Shown here: positions 35,838-51,234 of the stretch, one piece after another
Layout: every line of letters begins with the position of its first letter
Numbering within the stretch: the stretch's first letter is position 1
DNA from: an uncultured virus (IMG/VR IMGVR_UViG_3300023081_000006)
Taxonomy: Duplodnaviria > Heunggongvirae > Uroviricota > Caudoviricetes
Strand: one strand, 5' to 3'
Length of the DNA stretch: 60,533 nt
Virus record (IMG/VR): IMGVR_UViG_3300023081_000006
Notes under the pieces: generated by a model
Told to the model about the DNA's origin: nothing
What the model saw: only the letters and a program-made list of their open reading frames with translations
The model's database searches: none
Made by a program: the position numbers and the translations under genes

Positions 35838-36056
35838 TTACTTAGACGAAACAAATCTATTAATATCATTTGCCATAACTTCAATTTCTTTGAAGCTAGG
35901 AAAAGCAGGCATAGATGGAAAATCTGGACTAAGCCCCGAATCTACATCTGCATGATATTTGGATATTAGATTATCTCGTTCCATGTGATACTGTTCAGTT
36001 AGCAAAGATTTTGCTTCAGTAAACATAGAAAATCTAAGTTCGAATGGATTTGACAT
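35838..36056 (-). CDS. Small conserved-type phage protein (start reassigned to ATG 36056)
   Basis: MSNPFELRFSMFTEAK...FPSFKEIEVMANDINRFVSSK; strong CAGGAGG SD preceded by a CA-rich tract. Confidence 0.8.
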   Translation of the reverse strand: MSNPFELRFSMFTEAKSLLTEQYHMERDNLISKYHADVDSGLSPDFPSMPAFPSFKEIEVMANDINRFVSSK

Positions 36057-36089
36057 AATAACCTCCTGTGTGTATGTGTGTGTCAAATT

Positions 36090-36403
36090 GGGCCCGTTTG
36101 ATAACAAGGTGGAACCCTTACCCCGTCTAGCTTAAGCAGCCAGAGAAAATACCTCATCGTTGGCATTTATTGTGTTTCATTACGGTTACGGTCGCTTGCA
36201 CACCGATCCTCCACTTTCCTACTGAGCACTTGTCGAACCTGTTCACCCCCATCAGATATGCACTTACCACAATTTGTTCCAATTAAGTGATACTTTTCTG
36301 TATCACCCTCTCTTACATTGTTACAAATACACAAATACATATCTGGTGGAGGTGGTGGGAATCGCACCCACGTCCAAATACCTTTTCAGTCCGTTTCATC
36401 AGA
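36090..36403 (-). ncRNA. ssrA: Circularly permuted two-piece tmRNA: acceptor piece ~36403-36344, intervening segment 36343-36251, coding piece from 36250
   Basis: GGAC-GTGGG-TGCGATT-CCCAC-CACCTCC-ACCA precedes GGGGGTG-AACAGGTTCGAC; acceptor stem with G3.U70; ATAAAT-GCC resume context; tag ANDEVFSLAA* at 36164-36132; pseudoknot after the tag; outer ends approximate. Confidence 0.92.
36167..36340 (-). CDS. Candidate minimal Bfd-like [2Fe-2S] protein overlapping the tmRNA
   Basis: MYLCICNNV...IGTNCGKCI matches the Bfd pattern MYxCxCNx...GxxCGKC; no SD, so translation is unproven. Confidence 0.5.
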   Translation of the reverse strand: MYLCICNNVREGDTEKYHLIGTNCGKCISDGGEQVRQVLSRKVEDRCASDRNRNETQ

Positions 36404-37066
36404 TTAGTTATTTATAACTTCAGTCTCATAACTGTCTCTAGCGTTGAGCAATTTTTCTACATAGTTATCACGTTTTTCAACATGCACTATTGGCTCTTCG
36501 CCTTCAACAGCCATAAGAATGACTGATTGAGAAACAGGTATTCCTGTTCTTTCCTCAAACATTATAGCATAGGCAGAGCATTGAATAAAATAATTTTCGC
36601 ACTGACTTCTGCTTTTTGGTTTCATTGACGTTTTAAAGTCAATTACAGATAGTTTACCATTATATTCTGCAATACAGTCAACCTGTCCTGCAAGACGTAA
36701 ATGATCACTATACATTTTTGCCTCGATTGCTCTGATATTATCAATATCATCTAACAAAGGGCGAAACTTACGAAACATTTCCTTATCAATATAATTGAGG
36801 TTTGTATCCTCAGTCAATTCATTATTAAGAATGTCTTCGCAAAGTTTGTGAATCTTTGTACCACGAGTTGTGGCACGTCTACTAATTTTATCTGCTTCTT
36901 TTTCGCCTATTCTTTTACGCCAAGCTTGAATGTATGGCTTAGACTTATGAGATAAAATAGTTGTAACAGATGGATATTGAGTCCCGGACGGAGTAACATA
37001 TCTCCGCCCGTTCTCAGTATTAACCTGTTTAAGTTGTGGTATCTCTACCAAATTATGTGTAAACAA
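36404..37066 (-). CDS. PD-(D/E)XK Cas4-like exonuclease
   Basis: YPSVTTIL, RGT.IH, AG.VDCIAEY.GKLSVIDFKTS, YFIQ..AYA.M.EE.TG. Confidence 0.88.
   Translation of the reverse strand: MFTHNLVEIPQLKQVNTENGRRYVTPSGTQYPSVTTILSHKSKPYIQAWRKRIGEKEADKISRRATTRGTKIHKLCEDILNNELTEDTNLNYIDKEMFRKFRPLLDDIDNIRAIEAKMYSDHLRLAGQVDCIAEYNGKLSVIDFKTSMKPKSRSQCENYFIQCSAYAIMFEERTGIPVSQSVILMAVEGEEPIVHVEKRDNYVEKLLNARDSYETEVINN
36409..36416 (-). promoter_or_regulatory. T4-type late promoter driving the tmRNA
   Basis: TATAAATA immediately upstream of the acceptor piece. Confidence 0.75.
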
Positions 37067-37537: not shown

Positions 37538-38653
37538 TTAGGACTTACCGTAGTCTCCCTCGCCAAATATACTGTTCATGAGGGTCTTTTTCTGCTCATT
37601 TACACCGCACAAATTCCAACAAATAGCACATTTTTTCTCTTGCCAAGAGTCTTCAAACCACTGGAAAGGTTTGCTTTCTAGGATCTCTTTGAGGGGTCTT
37701 TTGTGTAAAGACAGCTCATGCTTGTCCATGTAATGTTTGATTTGAACTTTTAGGATCTGTGAGGACTTAAATCCTATTCTTGTAAAAGCTCCTATGTGGC
37801 AACATGGGTGTACATCTCCCCAGGCACTGATTCGTATTTCCTGATTTCCACTTCTTGCAGAAAAACATTTAATCTCTCCTGGCTCATCCTTATATCTAGT
37901 TTCATATTGTTCCTTCATATTCTCGTAATTCAGATCTTCTGCCATACCTATGAATACAATAGGACGTTCAGTAAAGGTTACTGATGTTGGAGCGGGCTCT
38001 ACTTCATAAAGTGTATTACCTTCCTTATCCTTAGCAATTAAATTTCCTTCTCCGCCCATGCCATTAGCATTTTTGGCATAGAACTTTGTAAAGCCAAGTT
38101 CGTCAGCTAATTTTTTAGCTTCTTCTACTTGATGTACATTGTATCCAAAGATTAAAAAATCCCATAAAGCACTAGCGCCGGTATCTAAATAAGCCTTAAC
38201 ATTTTCCATCACCTTATCCCACTTTACCTTTCTTCGATATAAGTGATTGGTGTCTTCTAATCCGTCTATGGAAAATGTAACAGTACGTCTAGAATCTTTT
38301 TTCATTACATTGCCAAGTTTTGTCCAAAAATCAGTATTTTTCATTCCACCGTTGGTACATAAATTTACAACCATTGTTGGATTGGCTTCAAAGATATATT
38401 CTAGTATTTCTATAATTTCTGGGTTTGTCATAGGGTCTCCGTAATCCCCAGAAAATGTTATGTGATTGATCTTTGAAAGAAATTCTATAGATAGCCAATT
38501 TTTAAAGTCTTCTGCTTTAATATAGGTTAGTGTTATATTAGGATTTAAATTTGGAGAACCTCGATCCTCAAATCTAGCACAAAAAAGACATTCGGCATTA
38601 CAGAGACTAGATGCTTCAATGTTCAAAGACGTTATTTTATCATATTCCCACAT
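37538..38653 (-). CDS. Radical SAM protein with SPASM/twitch-like C-terminus
   Basis: CNAECLFC, GDYGDP, TNGG, FSIDG, C-terminal GDVHPCC and CAICWNLC. Confidence 0.9.
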   Translation of the reverse strand: MWEYDKITSLNIEASSLCNAECLFCARFEDRGSPNLNPNITLTYIKAEDFKNWLSIEFLSKINHITFSGDYGDPMTNPEIIEILEYIFEANPTMVVNLCTNGGMKNTDFWTKLGNVMKKDSRRTVTFSIDGLEDTNHLYRRKVKWDKVMENVKAYLDTGASALWDFLIFGYNVHQVEEAKKLADELGFTKFYAKNANGMGGEGNLIAKDKEGNTLYEVEPAPTSVTFTERPIVFIGMAEDLNYENMKEQYETRYKDEPGEIKCFSARSGNQEIRISAWGDVHPCCHIGAFTRIGFKSSQILKVQIKHYMDKHELSLHKRPLKEILESKPFQWFEDSWQEKKCAICWNLCGVNEQKKTLMNSIFGEGDYGKS

Positions 38654-40836: not shown

Positions 40837-42273
40837 TTAAAAAACTTTTACTTTGTAATGTTTCTCAAATTCTATAGCATCAGCTTTAGTGTTTACAATA
40901 GGTTGTCCTTTGATATTCAAACTTGTATTCAACAACATAGGACATCTTGTTTTAGTTTTCCACTTTGTTAATAACTTATAAAGCCCTGGATTCTCATCCT
41001 TTGTAACTGTTTGAACTCTGCTAGTTCCGTCTTGATGAACAATAGCAGGATACTTTTTAGGTCTCTTTGCAGTTACAATATATTGCATATATGGAGACTT
41101 AAATCCTTCCTCAACATTAAATTCTTTGTGAACATCTTCAAGTCTAATAACAGGAGCAAAGGGTCTATACTCTTGTCTGTTTTTAATCTTGTTTACTTTA
41201 TCTTTCATTTCCATGCCTCTAGGATCAGCGAGCAGAGAGCGATTGCCCAAAGCACGAGGCCCAAATTCAGCACGGCCGTTTGCCACCCCGCAGATCCCAG
41301 TGGTAACCAATTCTTCCAAAACTTCACTTACAGGATATTCCCCCTCAATGTTGTAACCTAGATAAGGACCTTGCCAATTTATTTTTTCTCCTTTGTTTGC
41401 TAGTATAGCACCCAAAGATGAACCAGCATCACCTGGGTTAGGCATAATCCAACTTTCATCAAAATATTGTGATATCAATCTGTTGGCCAAACAATTTAAA
41501 GCACACCCTCCCATTACAACAATGTTTTTCTCGCCTGTTATTTTCTTTGTTTCTTTTAATAACGCTGTAAATTTAAATTCATAAAATTTTTGTACAGAAG
41601 CGGCAATGTCAAAATATTCTTGTTCTGTATATAACTCAGCACGCCAAGGCCTAATGCCCCTATGAAAATTTAATCCAGAATTCCAAAGATATTCAACGTC
41701 TTTATAATACTTATTAGGGTCTCCGTAAGCAGCCATACCCATTAAAATATATTCGTCTTCGTTTGCCTTTAGCCCTACCCTATCAGTAAATGCAGAATAC
41801 ATCAATCCCAATGACTTTGGGTAATACCAACGTTTTTTACATTTCATTTTATTGCCGTTGGCTTGCCATATAGAAGTGGTTGTAAATTCTCCTATAGCAT
41901 CTATTACTAATATTGCTGCTTTATCAAATTTAGAAGTATAGTAGCCTGCCGCTGCGTGGGATTTGTGATGATCACCCCATTCAATTTTTGTTTTTGTAAT
42001 GCCATATTGTTTCATGTAAACTGCAGGATTTAACCATCTGTTTTTCTGTCCAGCATAAACTTTTCTTAAAAACTTCCAACTAGGATCTTCGTACCAATGT
42101 ATTTTATCAGGATACCCAAACTTTAGTGCATCCTTTACAATAACATTATTTAAATCTTTATCGTTTTTAACTCTACTGTATCTTTCCGAATGAGATGCAA
42201 ATACGATCTCATCGTCCTTAACTACTGTAAGAGAACCGTCATGCGTGCCTGCTGCTACGCCCCATTCTATCAT
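40837..42273 (-). CDS. Carbamoyltransferase (NodU/CmcH/TobZ family)
   Basis: HDGS, SERYSRVKND, HHKSHAA, DAIGE, MGMAAYG, GGCALNC, PGDAG, EFGPRALGNRS, RPFAP, H.DGTSRVQTV, LNTSLN; start moved to the ATGA overlap at 42273. Confidence 0.95.
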   Translation of the reverse strand: MIEWGVAAGTHDGSLTVVKDDEIVFASHSERYSRVKNDKDLNNVIVKDALKFGYPDKIHWYEDPSWKFLRKVYAGQKNRWLNPAVYMKQYGITKTKIEWGDHHKSHAAAGYYTSKFDKAAILVIDAIGEFTTTSIWQANGNKMKCKKRWYYPKSLGLMYSAFTDRVGLKANEDEYILMGMAAYGDPNKYYKDVEYLWNSGLNFHRGIRPWRAELYTEQEYFDIAASVQKFYEFKFTALLKETKKITGEKNIVVMGGCALNCLANRLISQYFDESWIMPNPGDAGSSLGAILANKGEKINWQGPYLGYNIEGEYPVSEVLEELVTTGICGVANGRAEFGPRALGNRSLLADPRGMEMKDKVNKIKNRQEYRPFAPVIRLEDVHKEFNVEEGFKSPYMQYIVTAKRPKKYPAIVHQDGTSRVQTVTKDENPGLYKLLTKWKTKTRCPMLLNTSLNIKGQPIVNTKADAIEFEKHYKVKVF

Positions 42274-43775
42274 TGATATTTTCTCCATAAATCAGTGAAC
42301 TCTGGAAACACCTCTAAAAAATCTGTGTCTCTTCTTTGATCATGCTGTGTAAAAAATCTAACTAAGTTTTTTCTAGCAACAACAGCATCTTCTTGAGAAA
42401 TATTATTTTCTCTCATCCACTCTAAGTTTCTTTTAACCTTTGCAATTTCAAAATCATAAAATCCTGCAAAGTTATCCACATTAGAATTTTCCTCCATAAA
42501 CTTAATAGCTTCTTCTAAATATATCTCAAACTCTTGTGGTAGAGTATTAATACATTGCCAAGAAGGGTTTCTCAATAGAGGAACATCAAACCATATTCTT
42601 TGTCTGGGGTGTATTTCATAATCTGGATGTGTATTGTATTGATCATAGATAGGAATATATTTAACTCCCTGGTTTTCTCGACTATATGCCGTTCTTAATT
42701 CTAAAATATACTCCAAAAATTCTTTAAAGCTAGTTAAACTGAGGCTATTAAAAGTATTAATAAAGGTTAAAGTTGTATTGCATGTCTCTGACATTACTCT
42801 TTCAACGTTGTCCTGTAATAGATTATAATCCATACCATTTCTAATATACTCTGCTTGTTTGCCGGCTCCATCTAAACTAACAAACACTGCAAAGTTTTTA
42901 ACAGCCATGTTCACATACCAATTATTACCTGAACCTGGGTTCCAACGTTCACTTTTCCAAATTTGTATCTCTTCTAGCTTTCTAAGTTTTTCAATAAACT
43001 TGTCCATCAATTTATCTTTAGGAGGACACATGTTGCTTGTAACACTAACTTCTAACCAAGCATTAGGATTTTCATAAATGTAATCTAATACCTTAAAAGT
43101 ATTGGAGTCCATTAATGGTTCTCCCCCGGTCATTCTAAAAACTTCTAGTGTCTTATAAAGCTCGGGCCACCATTTCCAAAAAGCCTGAATATATGGATTG
43201 TCATCCTGTGCCTCTTTAATAGGCATTAAATCTATTAAGTGAGAAGTGTCATTATGTTTTGTTGGCTGTCCTTTATCATCTAAAACATGATAAGGCCCGT
43301 GTTGTTTTATTTCTTTTTCCCACGTATTGGATAAATGTGGAGAACAATACGAACATTTAAAGTTACATGCTTGATTAAAATTAACCTCAACATAACGAGG
43401 ATTGATGTCATCAACATTCAATGCTTGTATAATATCCTTCCTAGCATTTTGTGCCCAATACTCACCACTTCTATAGATTCTATCGCTTCTTCCGCCAACG
43501 TCCTCAATCTTCCAACAATATGAACAACCCTCAGGACGCTTTCCTTCAAGCATCATCTTACGTTCTTCTTTTTTCTGTTTTGTGTTGTGAAGTGCTGACG
43601 GATTGTCTTGTATTTCTTTAACGTCTATTGCGTGTGTAGGTGGGTGATAGCAGCTATGTGTTCTGCCATTTGTTAAATGCAAGGAAACTTGTGCCCATTT
43701 AGCATAGCACATAGTTTTAGAAATGTTTCGCAGTTGTCTCTCAGCTACATCTGCAGAGACATCATAATCACTCAT
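42270..43775 (-). CDS. Radical SAM protein with N-terminal twitch-like domain
   Basis: CYAKW...SCYH...CSYCW, CNFKCSYC, GGEPL. Confidence 0.9.
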   Translation of the reverse strand: MSDYDVSADVAERQLRNISKTMCYAKWAQVSLHLTNGRTHSCYHPPTHAIDVKEIQDNPSALHNTKQKKEERKMMLEGKRPEGCSYCWKIEDVGGRSDRIYRSGEYWAQNARKDIIQALNVDDINPRYVEVNFNQACNFKCSYCSPHLSNTWEKEIKQHGPYHVLDDKGQPTKHNDTSHLIDLMPIKEAQDDNPYIQAFWKWWPELYKTLEVFRMTGGEPLMDSNTFKVLDYIYENPNAWLEVSVTSNMCPPKDKLMDKFIEKLRKLEEIQIWKSERWNPGSGNNWYVNMAVKNFAVFVSLDGAGKQAEYIRNGMDYNLLQDNVERVMSETCNTTLTFINTFNSLSLTSFKEFLEYILELRTAYSRENQGVKYIPIYDQYNTHPDYEIHPRQRIWFDVPLLRNPSWQCINTLPQEFEIYLEEAIKFMEENSNVDNFAGFYDFEIAKVKRNLEWMRENNISQEDAVVARKNLVRFFTQHDQRRDTDFLEVFPEFTDLWRKYQ

Positions 43776-48999: not shown

Positions 49000-49754
49000 A
49001 ATTGATGTTCCTGAGCAAGAGCTCTTGCAAATAGTGTATGTCCTAAACGAGTGGGATGACCTCTTTCGTGAAAATATTTTTCTAAATTTTGATGTTGAAC
49101 TTTTTTGTTAATAAGATCAAAGGTGGTAATTTCCTCTTCAAGTAACAAAAGCTCTTTCACACACCAGTCAAACATATTAGAATGACCACCAACAGTAATT
49201 ATATCTGTCCATTGAATTGATGTATATAGGTGATTATCAAAATAAAGAAATTTTTCCTGTTTATACTCGTTTGTAAAAGAGGGAAAAATCTTATAATTCA
49301 ATATCCCGTTCGCATGACAAAATTGTTTAAGTAATTTATAAGACAGTAAAAAGTTTGTATTCTCAGATCTTTGAGAACTTATCTTAGCCCAGATTTTACA
49401 TAGTTCTTGATGTTCTTCTCCGTGAACATTGGGGGGTTCTGAATTAGGAAAAATGGTTAAAAATTCATTAAAAGTTTTTTTCGGTTTAGGAACCCATTTA
49501 GGATTTAAATAGTCTACCCTGGATAAAGCTGTTGGCATCCAAATTAAATACTTTTCTTGATAATCACTCAATCCTAAGTCGTACATGAATAAATTCAAAA
49601 CAGAACCAAGATTACCAACTCCCTCTGTACCTAGGTTAATATAATCTGCATTACAAATGTTAGCATATTGAGCTAGAAAAGATGCTTCTTCACCCCCGGC
49701 TTCTGCACCCTGTATAAAAGAATCACCTATTCCTATAATAAGTCTATCCGACAT
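48996..49754 (-). CDS. SGNH-like protein
   Basis: GDSFIQG, NLGTEGVGN, GHPTRLGH. Confidence 0.7.
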   Translation of the reverse strand: MSDRLIIGIGDSFIQGAEAGGEEASFLAQYANICNADYINLGTEGVGNLGSVLNLFMYDLGLSDYQEKYLIWMPTALSRVDYLNPKWVPKPKKTFNEFLTIFPNSEPPNVHGEEHQELCKIWAKISSQRSENTNFLLSYKLLKQFCHANGILNYKIFPSFTNEYKQEKFLYFDNHLYTSIQWTDIITVGGHSNMFDWCVKELLLLEEEITTFDLINKKVQHQNLEKYFHERGHPTRLGHTLFARALAQEHQL

Positions 49755-51234
49755 TGACTACCTCTATTCTAGTATTGTTTTCTTCTTCCGCTAAGTGTTT
49801 ACATAGATTCCAAAATGATTCCATATCTGGAAATGTTTCTAAAAAGTTTGTATCCCTTCTTCTATCTATTTCTGTAAACCATTTATAAAAATCTATTCTT
49901 CCTTGTTTTACTTTTTCATCATCATACTGAACTTCGGCAAAATAATCTCTAACACGTCTAAATCTTTCATATTCTATATCACTAAATTTTTTAGTGTCCG
50001 AGTCGTCTCTATTATCATCAATAAACTTTAAGATGTTGTCAAAGTGAGGCAAATATTCTTCTTTAGGAAGAATGTGCATATCATATTGTAAAGGCTCTTT
50101 TAAATAAGGAGTATCAAACCTTATTTTTCGATCTTGTGGATTTCTAGGATCCAATACAGGAATTACATCATCATAAAGTTCACGCCAATCTAAAATCTTT
50201 TGTAAATACTCTGTAAAAGAAGTTACTGACAAGATATTGAATGTACACATGTGCGTAATATGGGACTTAACTCCTCTAACATAAATGTCCTGATTCTTTT
50301 CCCACTTATTTACATCTAATCCTGTTCGCAAATACTCAGCACGTTTACCCCAAGTATCCATGCTTGTAAACATCTTAAACTTTCTAATTTTTTTACTGTC
50401 TAAAAGATCATTTATAATAGGCACTAGTTTTTCCACGTGCCTATGTGTCATACCGAGATTGCTATTAACATTAATTTCTAAATCAGGCTTAGGATTTTCT
50501 TTTAGATCATTAAATAACCGCCACGTGGATTTGTGTAACAGTGGCTCTCCGCCAGTAATACGCAAGATGTTTAATGTCTTGGACATCTCGGGCCACCATT
50601 CCCACCAAGCCTTAATAAAGGGATTATTGTCTTCATCTTTCAATGATGATAACAAAGAGCTCTGTTCAATGTAGTCTATATCTAAGGCATGGTTTTTAAC
50701 CATGTTGTATGGACCAAACTTTTTAATTTCATTATAGAAGCTTGTGCTTACAGCAGGATGGCAGTAACCACATTTAAAGTTACATTCATTGTGAAATGCA
50801 ACTTCTATATATTCTGGATTAACATTGTAATCCCACGGCATGCTTTTAATTTCTTCTATACGCTCAGGTGTAAAGATACTAGCATTACGAATTTTTCTAT
50901 CGCTAATGTGTTGCTGTTCCCAAGGTGTTTCATCAGTATCTAAACTTTCAACGTTCCAACAATACTTACACCCATCTGGTTTTTCACCAACAAGCATCTC
51001 TGCTCTTTCTTTTTTCTTTGTGCTTGTATTATGCAGAGCTGCTGGGTTTACTTTGATTTCTTCTACAGAAATATCATGGGGTCGTGGGTGATAACAGCTA
51101 TGCGTTTGCCCAGAGTACATGTATATTGAGGTGTGATGCCATTTAGCCAAACAGAAGGTTGGACTAATTTGTTCTTCTAGTTGTTTTGTAGTCTGACGAA
51201 TTTGTTCTACATCAGACTCGTATTTCGTACCCAT
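49744..51234 (-). CDS. Radical SAM protein with N-terminal twitch-like domain (paralog of 42270-43775)
   Basis: CLAKW...SCYH...CKYCW, CNFKCGYC, GGEPL. Confidence 0.9.
   Translation of the reverse strand: MGTKYESDVEQIRQTTKQLEEQISPTFCLAKWHHTSIYMYSGQTHSCYHPRPHDISVEEIKVNPAALHNTSTKKKERAEMLVGEKPDGCKYCWNVESLDTDETPWEQQHISDRKIRNASIFTPERIEEIKSMPWDYNVNPEYIEVAFHNECNFKCGYCHPAVSTSFYNEIKKFGPYNMVKNHALDIDYIEQSSLLSSLKDEDNNPFIKAWWEWWPEMSKTLNILRITGGEPLLHKSTWRLFNDLKENPKPDLEINVNSNLGMTHRHVEKLVPIINDLLDSKKIRKFKMFTSMDTWGKRAEYLRTGLDVNKWEKNQDIYVRGVKSHITHMCTFNILSVTSFTEYLQKILDWRELYDDVIPVLDPRNPQDRKIRFDTPYLKEPLQYDMHILPKEEYLPHFDNILKFIDDNRDDSDTKKFSDIEYERFRRVRDYFAEVQYDDEKVKQGRIDFYKWFTEIDRRRDTNFLETFPDMESFWNLCKHLAEEENNTRIEVVNVG

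Follow-up and report, generated by a model that had tools for sequence, protein, structure and literature searches.

Can the spacer of a two-piece transfer-messenger RNA (tmRNA) gene, a segment regarded as discarded and in which annotation pipelines call no genes, hold a gene for a protein? The question is raised by 60,533 nucleotides (nt) of DNA from an uncultured virus of the Caudoviricetes (IMG/VR record IMGVR_UViG_3300023081_000006), here called the window, in which the spacer of a permuted tmRNA gene (ssrA) is filled by an open reading frame (ORF) with the cysteine pattern of bacterioferritin-associated ferredoxin (Bfd). Comparison with its relatives indicates that this ORF is a genuine conserved protein-coding gene and not a product of chance. 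The best explanation, which we consider probable, is that the spacer gene encodes a shortened Bfd-like protein (mini-Bfd), a [2Fe-2S] helper in iron-sulphur (Fe-S) cluster supply that is made from the unprocessed tmRNA precursor (pre-tmRNA).

The window is a portion of the complete 162,417-bp genome of a T4-like marine or estuarine myophage (completeness rated by CheckV), whose closest cultured relatives at the tmRNA locus are the Pelagibacter phages Mosig and HTVC008M. On the minus strand, the Rfam model RF04321 (tmRNA_permuted) matched positions 36132–36405 with 110 bits (gathering score 47), a second model, RF01849 (alpha_tmRNA), matched 36087–36455 with 70.2 bits (gathering score 50), and ARAGORN called a permuted tmRNA with the tag ANDEVFSLAA, which reads ANDEVF[S/A]LAA among the closest variants. 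The order of parts is that of a permuted gene: the CCA-bearing acceptor 3′ strand lies upstream of the acceptor 5′ strand with G1, and a tag frame with resume codon (GCC at 36164) and stop is present. Mosig and HTVC008M carry their permuted tmRNA at the equivalent location, 3′ of a PD-(D/E)XK exonuclease gene. A glutamine riboswitch, which the main text of PMC9004378 describes with the phage tmRNA in Melnitz and Mosig, was not detected in the window tmRNA by Rfam at its gathering score.

The 93 nt between the CCA end and G1 open with GAU AUG (Table 1). The ATG at 36340, 3 nt beyond CCA, starts a frame of 57 codons that stays open until a TAA (36169–36167) beginning 5 nt ahead of the resume codon, and codons 1–30 fill the spacer exactly. 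The spacer is predicted to fold into a long rod (−27 kcal/mol; z-score −4.86, 200 shuffles), whose 13-bp basal stem includes the AUG and pairs the start region with the codons for Lys26-Cys27-Ile28-Ser29. There is no Shine-Dalgarno (SD) sequence, the ATG being preceded by the acceptor strand CCUCCACCA and then GAU. This geometry, together with an AUG placed in a stem of about 13 bp and lacking an SD, had been read from the letters by a first-pass annotation, and both sequence and fold bear it out. The buried AUG is a real difficulty for translation. In this phage a start without an SD is no exception: in a rough tally of 54 gene starts in the window, 21 lack an SD-like tetramer and 24 have a strong one. 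Translational coupling from the upstream gene was considered and rejected, as the exonuclease gene stops 63 nt before the ATG with an extra in-frame TGA in between.

Relatives were sought with a degenerate DNA pattern (Met-Tyr-x-Cys-x-Cys-Asn, any gap of 36–66 nt, Cys-Gly-Lys-Cys). In IMG/VR it had 86 matches, with gaps of 48, 54 or 60 nt and thus all in frame; over 596 billion bases, from 185,579 bacterial and archaeal species represented by a single genome each, it had three, all out of frame, which correspond to ordinary longer Bfd-like genes. A spacer-specific pattern had zero matches in the genomes of these species, and a spacer-specific scan of metagenome contigs yielded 16 further loci. 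The embedded spacer sequences comprise 14 distinct variants, from tmRNAs with differing T-arms and at least eight tag peptides. In all 14, the frame is open from the AUG through the four cysteines and across G1, the AUG lying 3 nt from CCA in 11 variants and 7 nt in three. Nei-Gojobori comparison of 13 variants (78 pairs) gave mean proportions of synonymous (pS) and non-synonymous (pN) differences of 0.65 and 0.13, with a median ratio of non-synonymous to synonymous substitution (dN/dS) of 0.095 (50 pairs). For codons 8–23, which the pattern leaves free, pS was 0.68, pN 0.22 and the median dN/dS 0.18 (47 pairs). Variable columns number 13, 9 and 26 at codon positions 1, 2 and 3, respectively. 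Synonymous sites are near saturation and replacements few, several of them like for like (Arg/Lys, Asp/Glu); one lineage writes arginine as AGA, another as CGC. The closing stem is retained in relatives as well, and between L217 and L221 a compensatory change from G-C to A-U is at the same time a synonymous change of a Cys codon. In a sample collected by the T-arm only, blind to any ORF, 8 of 119 loci had a 93-nt spacer (four variants), and all eight were intact.

RNA structure alone does not yield such a pattern, with synonymous sites nearly saturated, replacements few and the stem kept as well. A frame that is never translated, conserved for the sake of a pre-tmRNA processing structure and resembling a protein only as the relic of an inserted gene, would suit a very stable and partly conserved RNA fold (z −4.86), the missing SD and the sequestered AUG. 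It fits poorly with substitutions that fall mostly on third codon positions, with the two ways of writing arginine, with a frame and four cysteines found in every variant despite differing T-arms and tags, and with the spacer ORF being the sole copy of its family in the 162,417-bp genome; the lack of an SD is, moreover, shared by about four in ten gene starts of the window. We consider this explanation highly improbable. Relatives' spacers thus keep stem, frame and cysteines alike, at a dN/dS of about 0.1, and the coding claim of the first-pass annotation stands. The stop codon fared differently: it had been noted just upstream of the resume codon, where it indeed lies in the window, but this position is not conserved across the 14 variants, where the stop precedes the resume codon by 20, 11 or 5 nt or follows it by 5–34 nt and, in the 12 variants whose tag could be called, is never in frame with the tag. 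Conservation is confined to the 30-residue start; the tail, read from mature tmRNA sequence, differs among lineages.

The 86 IMG/VR loci encode 52 distinct proteins of 34–73 residues, plus two longer ones among them, in which the domain is always N-terminal. They fall into two classes, with 16 or 20 residues from Asn7 to the third cysteine (18 in one protein). When a profile of 51 sequences was compared with 177,635 solved sequences, it retrieved only Bfd of Pseudomonas aeruginosa (four sequences, E 6.9e-5 to 9e-5), the next match following at E 0.086; profile positions 1–33 align to Bfd residues 1–43 with one 10-residue gap, required even by the longer of the two classes. Cys4, Cys6, Cys24 and Cys27 of the window peptide align to Cys4, 6, 38 and 41 of P. 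aeruginosa Bfd, the invariance of these cysteines across the family set being partly built in by the search pattern. Between the cysteine pairs lie 17 residues (21 in the sister class) compared with 31 in P. aeruginosa Bfd, a deletion of 10–14 residues. Of the 52 proteins, 27 were scanned, and Fer2_BFD (PF04324) was listed at E ≤ 1 for 22 of these; two reach the gathering score of 26 bits, and one aligned across almost the entire model. On the strength of these alignments, the family is best described as a shortened Bfd-like domain, which would work like, and descend from, the Fer2_BFD kind.

For the window peptide on its own, Fer2_BFD scored 10.7 bits (E 0.7) over 57 residues and 14.4 bits (E 0.049) over 30; the Bfd equivalog, its sole NCBIfam match, scored 17 bits (E 0.005, cut-off 75), and its best PDB match was Bfd at E 0.067. 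Nor does it possess the full-length helix-turn-helix Bfd fold with some 31 residues between the pairs. Because it falls short in both score and spacing, we do not file the window peptide as a member of Pfam Fer2_BFD. The Bfd likeness proposed earlier therefore holds for the family profile, and not for the single peptide judged by curated cut-offs. Among 1.84 billion representatives of 50% identity clusters, the profile matched 241 clusters at E ≤ 0.001 (33 at E ≤ 1e-10); the best 150 of these are almost all 35–110 residues long, and the ones retrieved from among the weakest matches resemble canonical Bfd. The nearest Atlas clusters carry Fer2_BFD, which we take as a lead only. A tblastn search of 50,697 cultured-phage records with the window peptide and two other members found no family members, its matches being canonical Bfd genes in two Salmonella genome records and one short unannotated Escherichia phage record. 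In the scans made here, the family has so far appeared only in uncultured viral or metagenome DNA.

Two side observations concern individual members. The sequences of the representative proteins P0076, P0017 and P0066 suggest, as judged from protein alone, that one AUG overlaps CCA and that another mini-Bfd frame enters the T-arm. In L195 (1–1581, minus strand), the mini-Bfd frame continues stop-free into a DNA helicase gene for 527 codons, as a fusion or an in-frame overlap.

What might such a protein do? In 25 of the 86 family loci, a NifU_N (IscU-type) gene (169–180 bits) lies upstream on the same strand, and in five of those 25 it directly abuts the mini-Bfd start. The phage NifU_N protein contains an LPPVK stretch, a hallmark of IscU. 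NifU consists of an IscU-like domain followed by a central Fer2_BFD-type domain; the phage pair would by analogy resemble these two domains of NifU as separate genes. A predicted complex of phage IscU with the neighbouring mini-Bfd scored 0.01, which gives no verdict either way. Neither the 65 ORFs annotated around 20 representative loci nor the 58 ORFs of the window include a ferritin-type gene. The window itself encodes one clear radical SAM/SPASM protein, along with two radical-SAM-like proteins whose matches are weaker. The three genes (37538–38653, 42273–43775 and 49747–51234), on the minus strand like the tmRNA and upstream of it, are clustered among sugar-modifying enzymes with epimerase, carbamoyltransferase and methyltransferase neighbours.

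Taken as a whole, the neighbourhoods point more to Fe-S cluster supply through IscU than to bacterioferritin. A true Bfd function, in which the peptide docks on host bacterioferritin, passes electrons and frees stored iron for the phage independently of IscU, appears unlikely: the recurrent neighbour is the IscU-type gene, ferritin and bacterioferritin are absent from the 65 annotated neighbours of the 20 representative loci, and 10–14 residues of the Bfd fold are deleted. It nevertheless draws some support from Bfd chains being the only significant relatives of solved structure, from the NCBIfam Bfd equivalog as the sole match in that collection, and from the canonical Bfd proteins among the weakest matches of the profile.

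Linkage of mini-Bfd to tmRNA was seen in 18 of the 86 loci, embedded in 12 and with the mini-Bfd gene immediately upstream in six. In the four lineages of the upstream form that were examined, the tmRNA model takes in the last 38–74 nt of the ORF, whose stop is followed by the CCA end after 41–62 nt; in two of them (L128, L134), a sigma-70-type promoter-like sequence precedes the mini-Bfd ORF. In a weakly resolved tree of 32 columns, the embedded copies fall into the 16-residue clade together with the IscU-linked ones, and the upstream copies into the 20-residue clade. As the two forms belong to different clades, the union with ssrA appears to have arisen, or been kept, in both.

The spacer, for its part, proved to be a place that varies widely. 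A common T-arm was found with dozens of different spacers of 4–176 nt, and 19 of 111 distinct spacers (236 loci) exceed 80 nt. Short spacers are plain hairpins, and their arm sequences match the stems that flank mini-Bfd in L197, L217 and L221. It follows from these shared arms that the mini-Bfd gene is located in the loop of the ancestral closing hairpin, a feature of most phage spacers, with its first and last codons forming the arms. Besides the four mini-Bfd variants, at least seven long spacers hold unrelated ORFs of 28–57 codons that nearly fill them, some with an SD, some stopping inside the spacer and one running into the tmRNA; intervening segments, which the first-pass annotation had described as normally non-coding, are thus not uniformly so. 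These spacers (L026/L104, L275, L110, L042, L258, L099 and L050) encode, for instance, a highly basic peptide of 55 residues with a Cys pair, two related peptides sharing SKHRLHT, and two membrane-like peptides. In L052, a frame of 65 codons begins in the spacer, crosses the 5′ part of the tmRNA and reads the tag peptide in frame up to its stop, which may be chance.

How the gene would be expressed can be outlined from this layout. Mini-Bfd would bind a [2Fe-2S] cluster and partner an IscU-type scaffold, phage-encoded in relatives and host-encoded here; together they would make or repair Fe-S clusters in the infected cell and feed phage enzymes, e.g. the nearby radical SAM proteins. The precursor may be transcribed from the late-promoter-like octamer TATAAATA at 36416–36409, a type of octamer that occurs 11 times on the minus strand of the 60.5-kb window. 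Since cleavage at G1 would remove the stop codon, mini-Bfd would have to be translated from the unprocessed pre-tmRNA, and translation to the stop and maturation would therefore be mutually exclusive for any one molecule. The tail read from the tmRNA would be tolerated ballast, and the spacer a general slot that lets such phages carry small genes as part of a strongly transcribed unit. A single transcript seems to act both as messenger and as stable-RNA precursor. In a sister lineage (L146/L159/L167), TATAAATA also stands upstream of the tmRNA, in addition to a sigma-70-like promoter (TTGACA-17-TATTAT).

These exclusive fates could themselves have been selected. The pre-tmRNA would then be a bifunctional RNA in which ORF translation and tmRNA maturation compete, a circuit in which the supply of rescue RNA follows the iron or Fe-S status, or the translational load, during infection. 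A ribosome on the mini-ferredoxin frame would have to traverse the G1 site and unfold the acceptor helix, and RNase P cleavage would remove the stop, so that the cleaved ORF becomes a non-stop message and its ribosome a client of the released tmRNA, which would tag the product; the repeated joining of a [2Fe-2S]-type gene to ssrA, as leader or spacer ORF and in different clades, would be the selected trait. In all 14 variants, indeed, the mini-Bfd frame passes G1 without a stop in the spacer, whereas other cargo ORFs do end there; the mini-Bfd AUG is set 3 nt (11 variants) or 7 nt (three) from CCA within the closing stem, and linkage to tmRNA recurs in two architectures. The same geometry, however, follows from the end of the gene forming the 3′ stem arm that abuts G1, which makes regulation unnecessary, and neither the position of the stop nor its frame relative to the tag is conserved. 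We regard a selected circuit of this kind as improbable, and competition between the two uses as a form of regulation coupling peptide and tmRNA as equally so. A coupling to maturation or to iron status, as the first-pass annotation proposed, fits the geometry, which is its sole ground, and is in our view just as improbable.

Several observations weigh against a translated [2Fe-2S] helper. On the side of translation, the start lacks an SD and is buried in the 13-bp stem of a very stable hairpin. In metatranscriptomes, 15 of 24 listed runs contain at least half of the sampled words from the spacer-ORF stretch, yet these data are contigs: the four examined (1.5–4.6 kb, spanning the stretch) are uninformative about transcription, ends and processing, and DNA carry-over is possible. 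The search pattern requires the Met, Tyr, Asn, Cys, Gly and Lys codons and so misses broken copies, the T-arm sample alone being unbiased. On the side of function, the genome of the window phage has no NifU-like gene, and partnership with IscU is argued by analogy with relatives. The window peptide alone stays under every curated threshold of Pfam and NCBIfam; the AlphaFold (AF2) model, 34 residues long, is mediocre (pLDDT 72.5), and a Foldseek comparison of it with the PDB gave no match, the model being too short to inform. Cysteine spacing is far below that of any characterised Bfd, so that a zinc site is possible, and a zinc-ribbon model scores the window peptide about as well as Fer2_BFD does (15–17 bits, cut-off 27). 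That the four cysteines bind zinc as a structural knuckle, or another metal, in a role unrelated to Fe-S, would agree with these last two points and with the shortness of the domain. Across the family, zinc-ribbon matches occur in three of 27 scanned members against 22 of 27 for Fer2_BFD, the profile matches Bfd over its full length, and IscU genes adjoin; a zinc role is accordingly rated as improbable, and the [2Fe-2S] helper in Fe-S supply remains the explanation we favour.

Table 1. Features of the tmRNA locus and its surroundings (window coordinates)
Feature	Position	Strand	Basis
Permuted two-piece tmRNA, widest call	36041..36436	-	ARAGORN; Rfam RF04321, RF01849
T-arm and acceptor 3′ strand, CCA at 36346-36344	36344..36375	-	Rfam alignment, sequence
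Spacer from CCA end to G1, 93 nt	36251..36343	-	Sequence, Rfam, fold
Mini-Bfd ORF, 57 codons plus TAA, spanning the G1 processing site	36167..36340	-	Translation
Conserved 30-codon domain, Cys4/Cys6/Cys24/Cys27	36251..36340	-	Embedded variants, family alignment, Bfd profile match
Closing stem, 5′ arm, 13 bp, holding the AUG	36331..36343	-	RNA fold; stem retained in relatives
Closing stem, 3′ arm, codons Lys26-Cys27-Ile28-Ser29	36255..36267	-	RNA fold
Apical 8-bp hairpin within the ORF, codons 12-19	36286..36307	-	RNA fold; related hairpins in most variants
tmRNA coding piece, 5′ part from G1, with tag frame 36164-36132 (ANDEVFSLAA, stop)	36132..36250	-	ARAGORN, Rfam
TATAAATA, T4-type late-promoter-like octamer immediately upstream of the tmRNA	36409..36416	-	Motif; promoter role inferred
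PD-(D/E)XK / Cas4-like exonuclease gene, upstream	36404..37066	-	Synteny with Mosig, HTVC008M
Radical SAM / SPASM enzyme gene, likely Fe-S cluster consumer	37538..38653	-	1.2 kb upstream, same strand

Further features recur around mini-Bfd in other loci. A conserved leader with two hairpins directly precedes the gene in L125, L138, L151, L153 and L193 (in these five ~130 nt upstream of the start) and in L139 and L186. GGGGGUG...CGCCCCC closes one of the hairpins; the leader matched no Rfam family and may be an undescribed regulatory RNA. In L179 (2101–3013), seven tRNA genes lie directly 3′ of a tmRNA with embedded mini-Bfd. Tiny, extremely Lys-rich ORFs (~20–45 codons) recur 3′ of mini-Bfd/tmRNA in L139, L186 and L125.

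What is new here is a mini-Bfd gene in a tmRNA spacer; a gene in an excised segment of a stable RNA and a relative of Bfd are each of a known kind. As the spacer carries the only copy of a conserved gene, genes of this sort are systematically missed. At about 30 residues, mini-Bfd may rank among the smallest natural [2Fe-2S] scaffolds and should interest Fe-S biochemists and protein designers alike. Its pairing with phage IscU would supply a missing part in the Fe-S gene set of marine phages, and the arrangement offers a simple natural system for splitting one transcript between translation and stable-RNA maturation.

Among known systems, the two-piece tmRNA genes of Alphaproteobacteria and of the phages Mosig, HTVC008M and Melnitz (an OM43 phage) share the order of acceptor piece with CCA, spacer, and coding piece with tag. 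The marine myophage tmRNAs also agree in their place after the PD-(D/E)XK exonuclease gene, a resume codon for alanine and a tag with LAA at its end. The spacers of Mosig and HTVC008M, in contrast, are hairpins of 44 and 49 nt without a mini-Bfd ORF, whereas the loop of the window hairpin holds the conserved 30-codon gene. Permuted phage tmRNAs of this type are described in the main text of PMC9004378, and a 2025 tmRNA database (PMC11915505) reports, in its main text, one spacer with a tRNA-Ala gene, and group I introns of tmRNA genes that contain homing-endonuclease genes. We came across no protein gene described from the spacer of a tmRNA in openly available main texts, these two included.

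With Bfd itself (PDB 4E6K, 6E6Q-S; PF04324), mini-Bfd shares an N-terminal Met-Tyr-x-Cys-x-Cys followed by Gly-x-x-Cys-Gly-Lys-Cys, an end-to-end profile alignment and the form of a small stand-alone protein. Unlike Bfd, the mini-family has a shorter cysteine spacing, mostly stays under the Pfam cut-off, and has IscU-type or tmRNA neighbours instead of bfr. Our search for literature on BFD-like proteins in marine viruses returned nothing. Marine T4-like viral genomes carry iscU, A-type carriers and many radical SAM genes as auxiliary genes, according to the main text of PMC5332604, in which the word ferredoxin does not occur and neither a mini-Bfd partner gene nor a tmRNA linkage is mentioned. 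The phage kind and the theme are the same as here, where IscU-type genes adjoin free-standing mini-Bfd.

The closest parallels for a coding frame in a segment removed during stable-RNA maturation are the homing-endonuclease genes of tmRNA introns and the S23p ORF within the intervening sequence of Coxiella 23S rRNA, whose abstract opens as if S23p may go unsynthesised (PMC4990558). Such frames are selfish elements or belong to them, whereas the mini-Bfd gene is of a metabolic type, evolves under purifying selection, is the sole copy in its genome and crosses the processing site.

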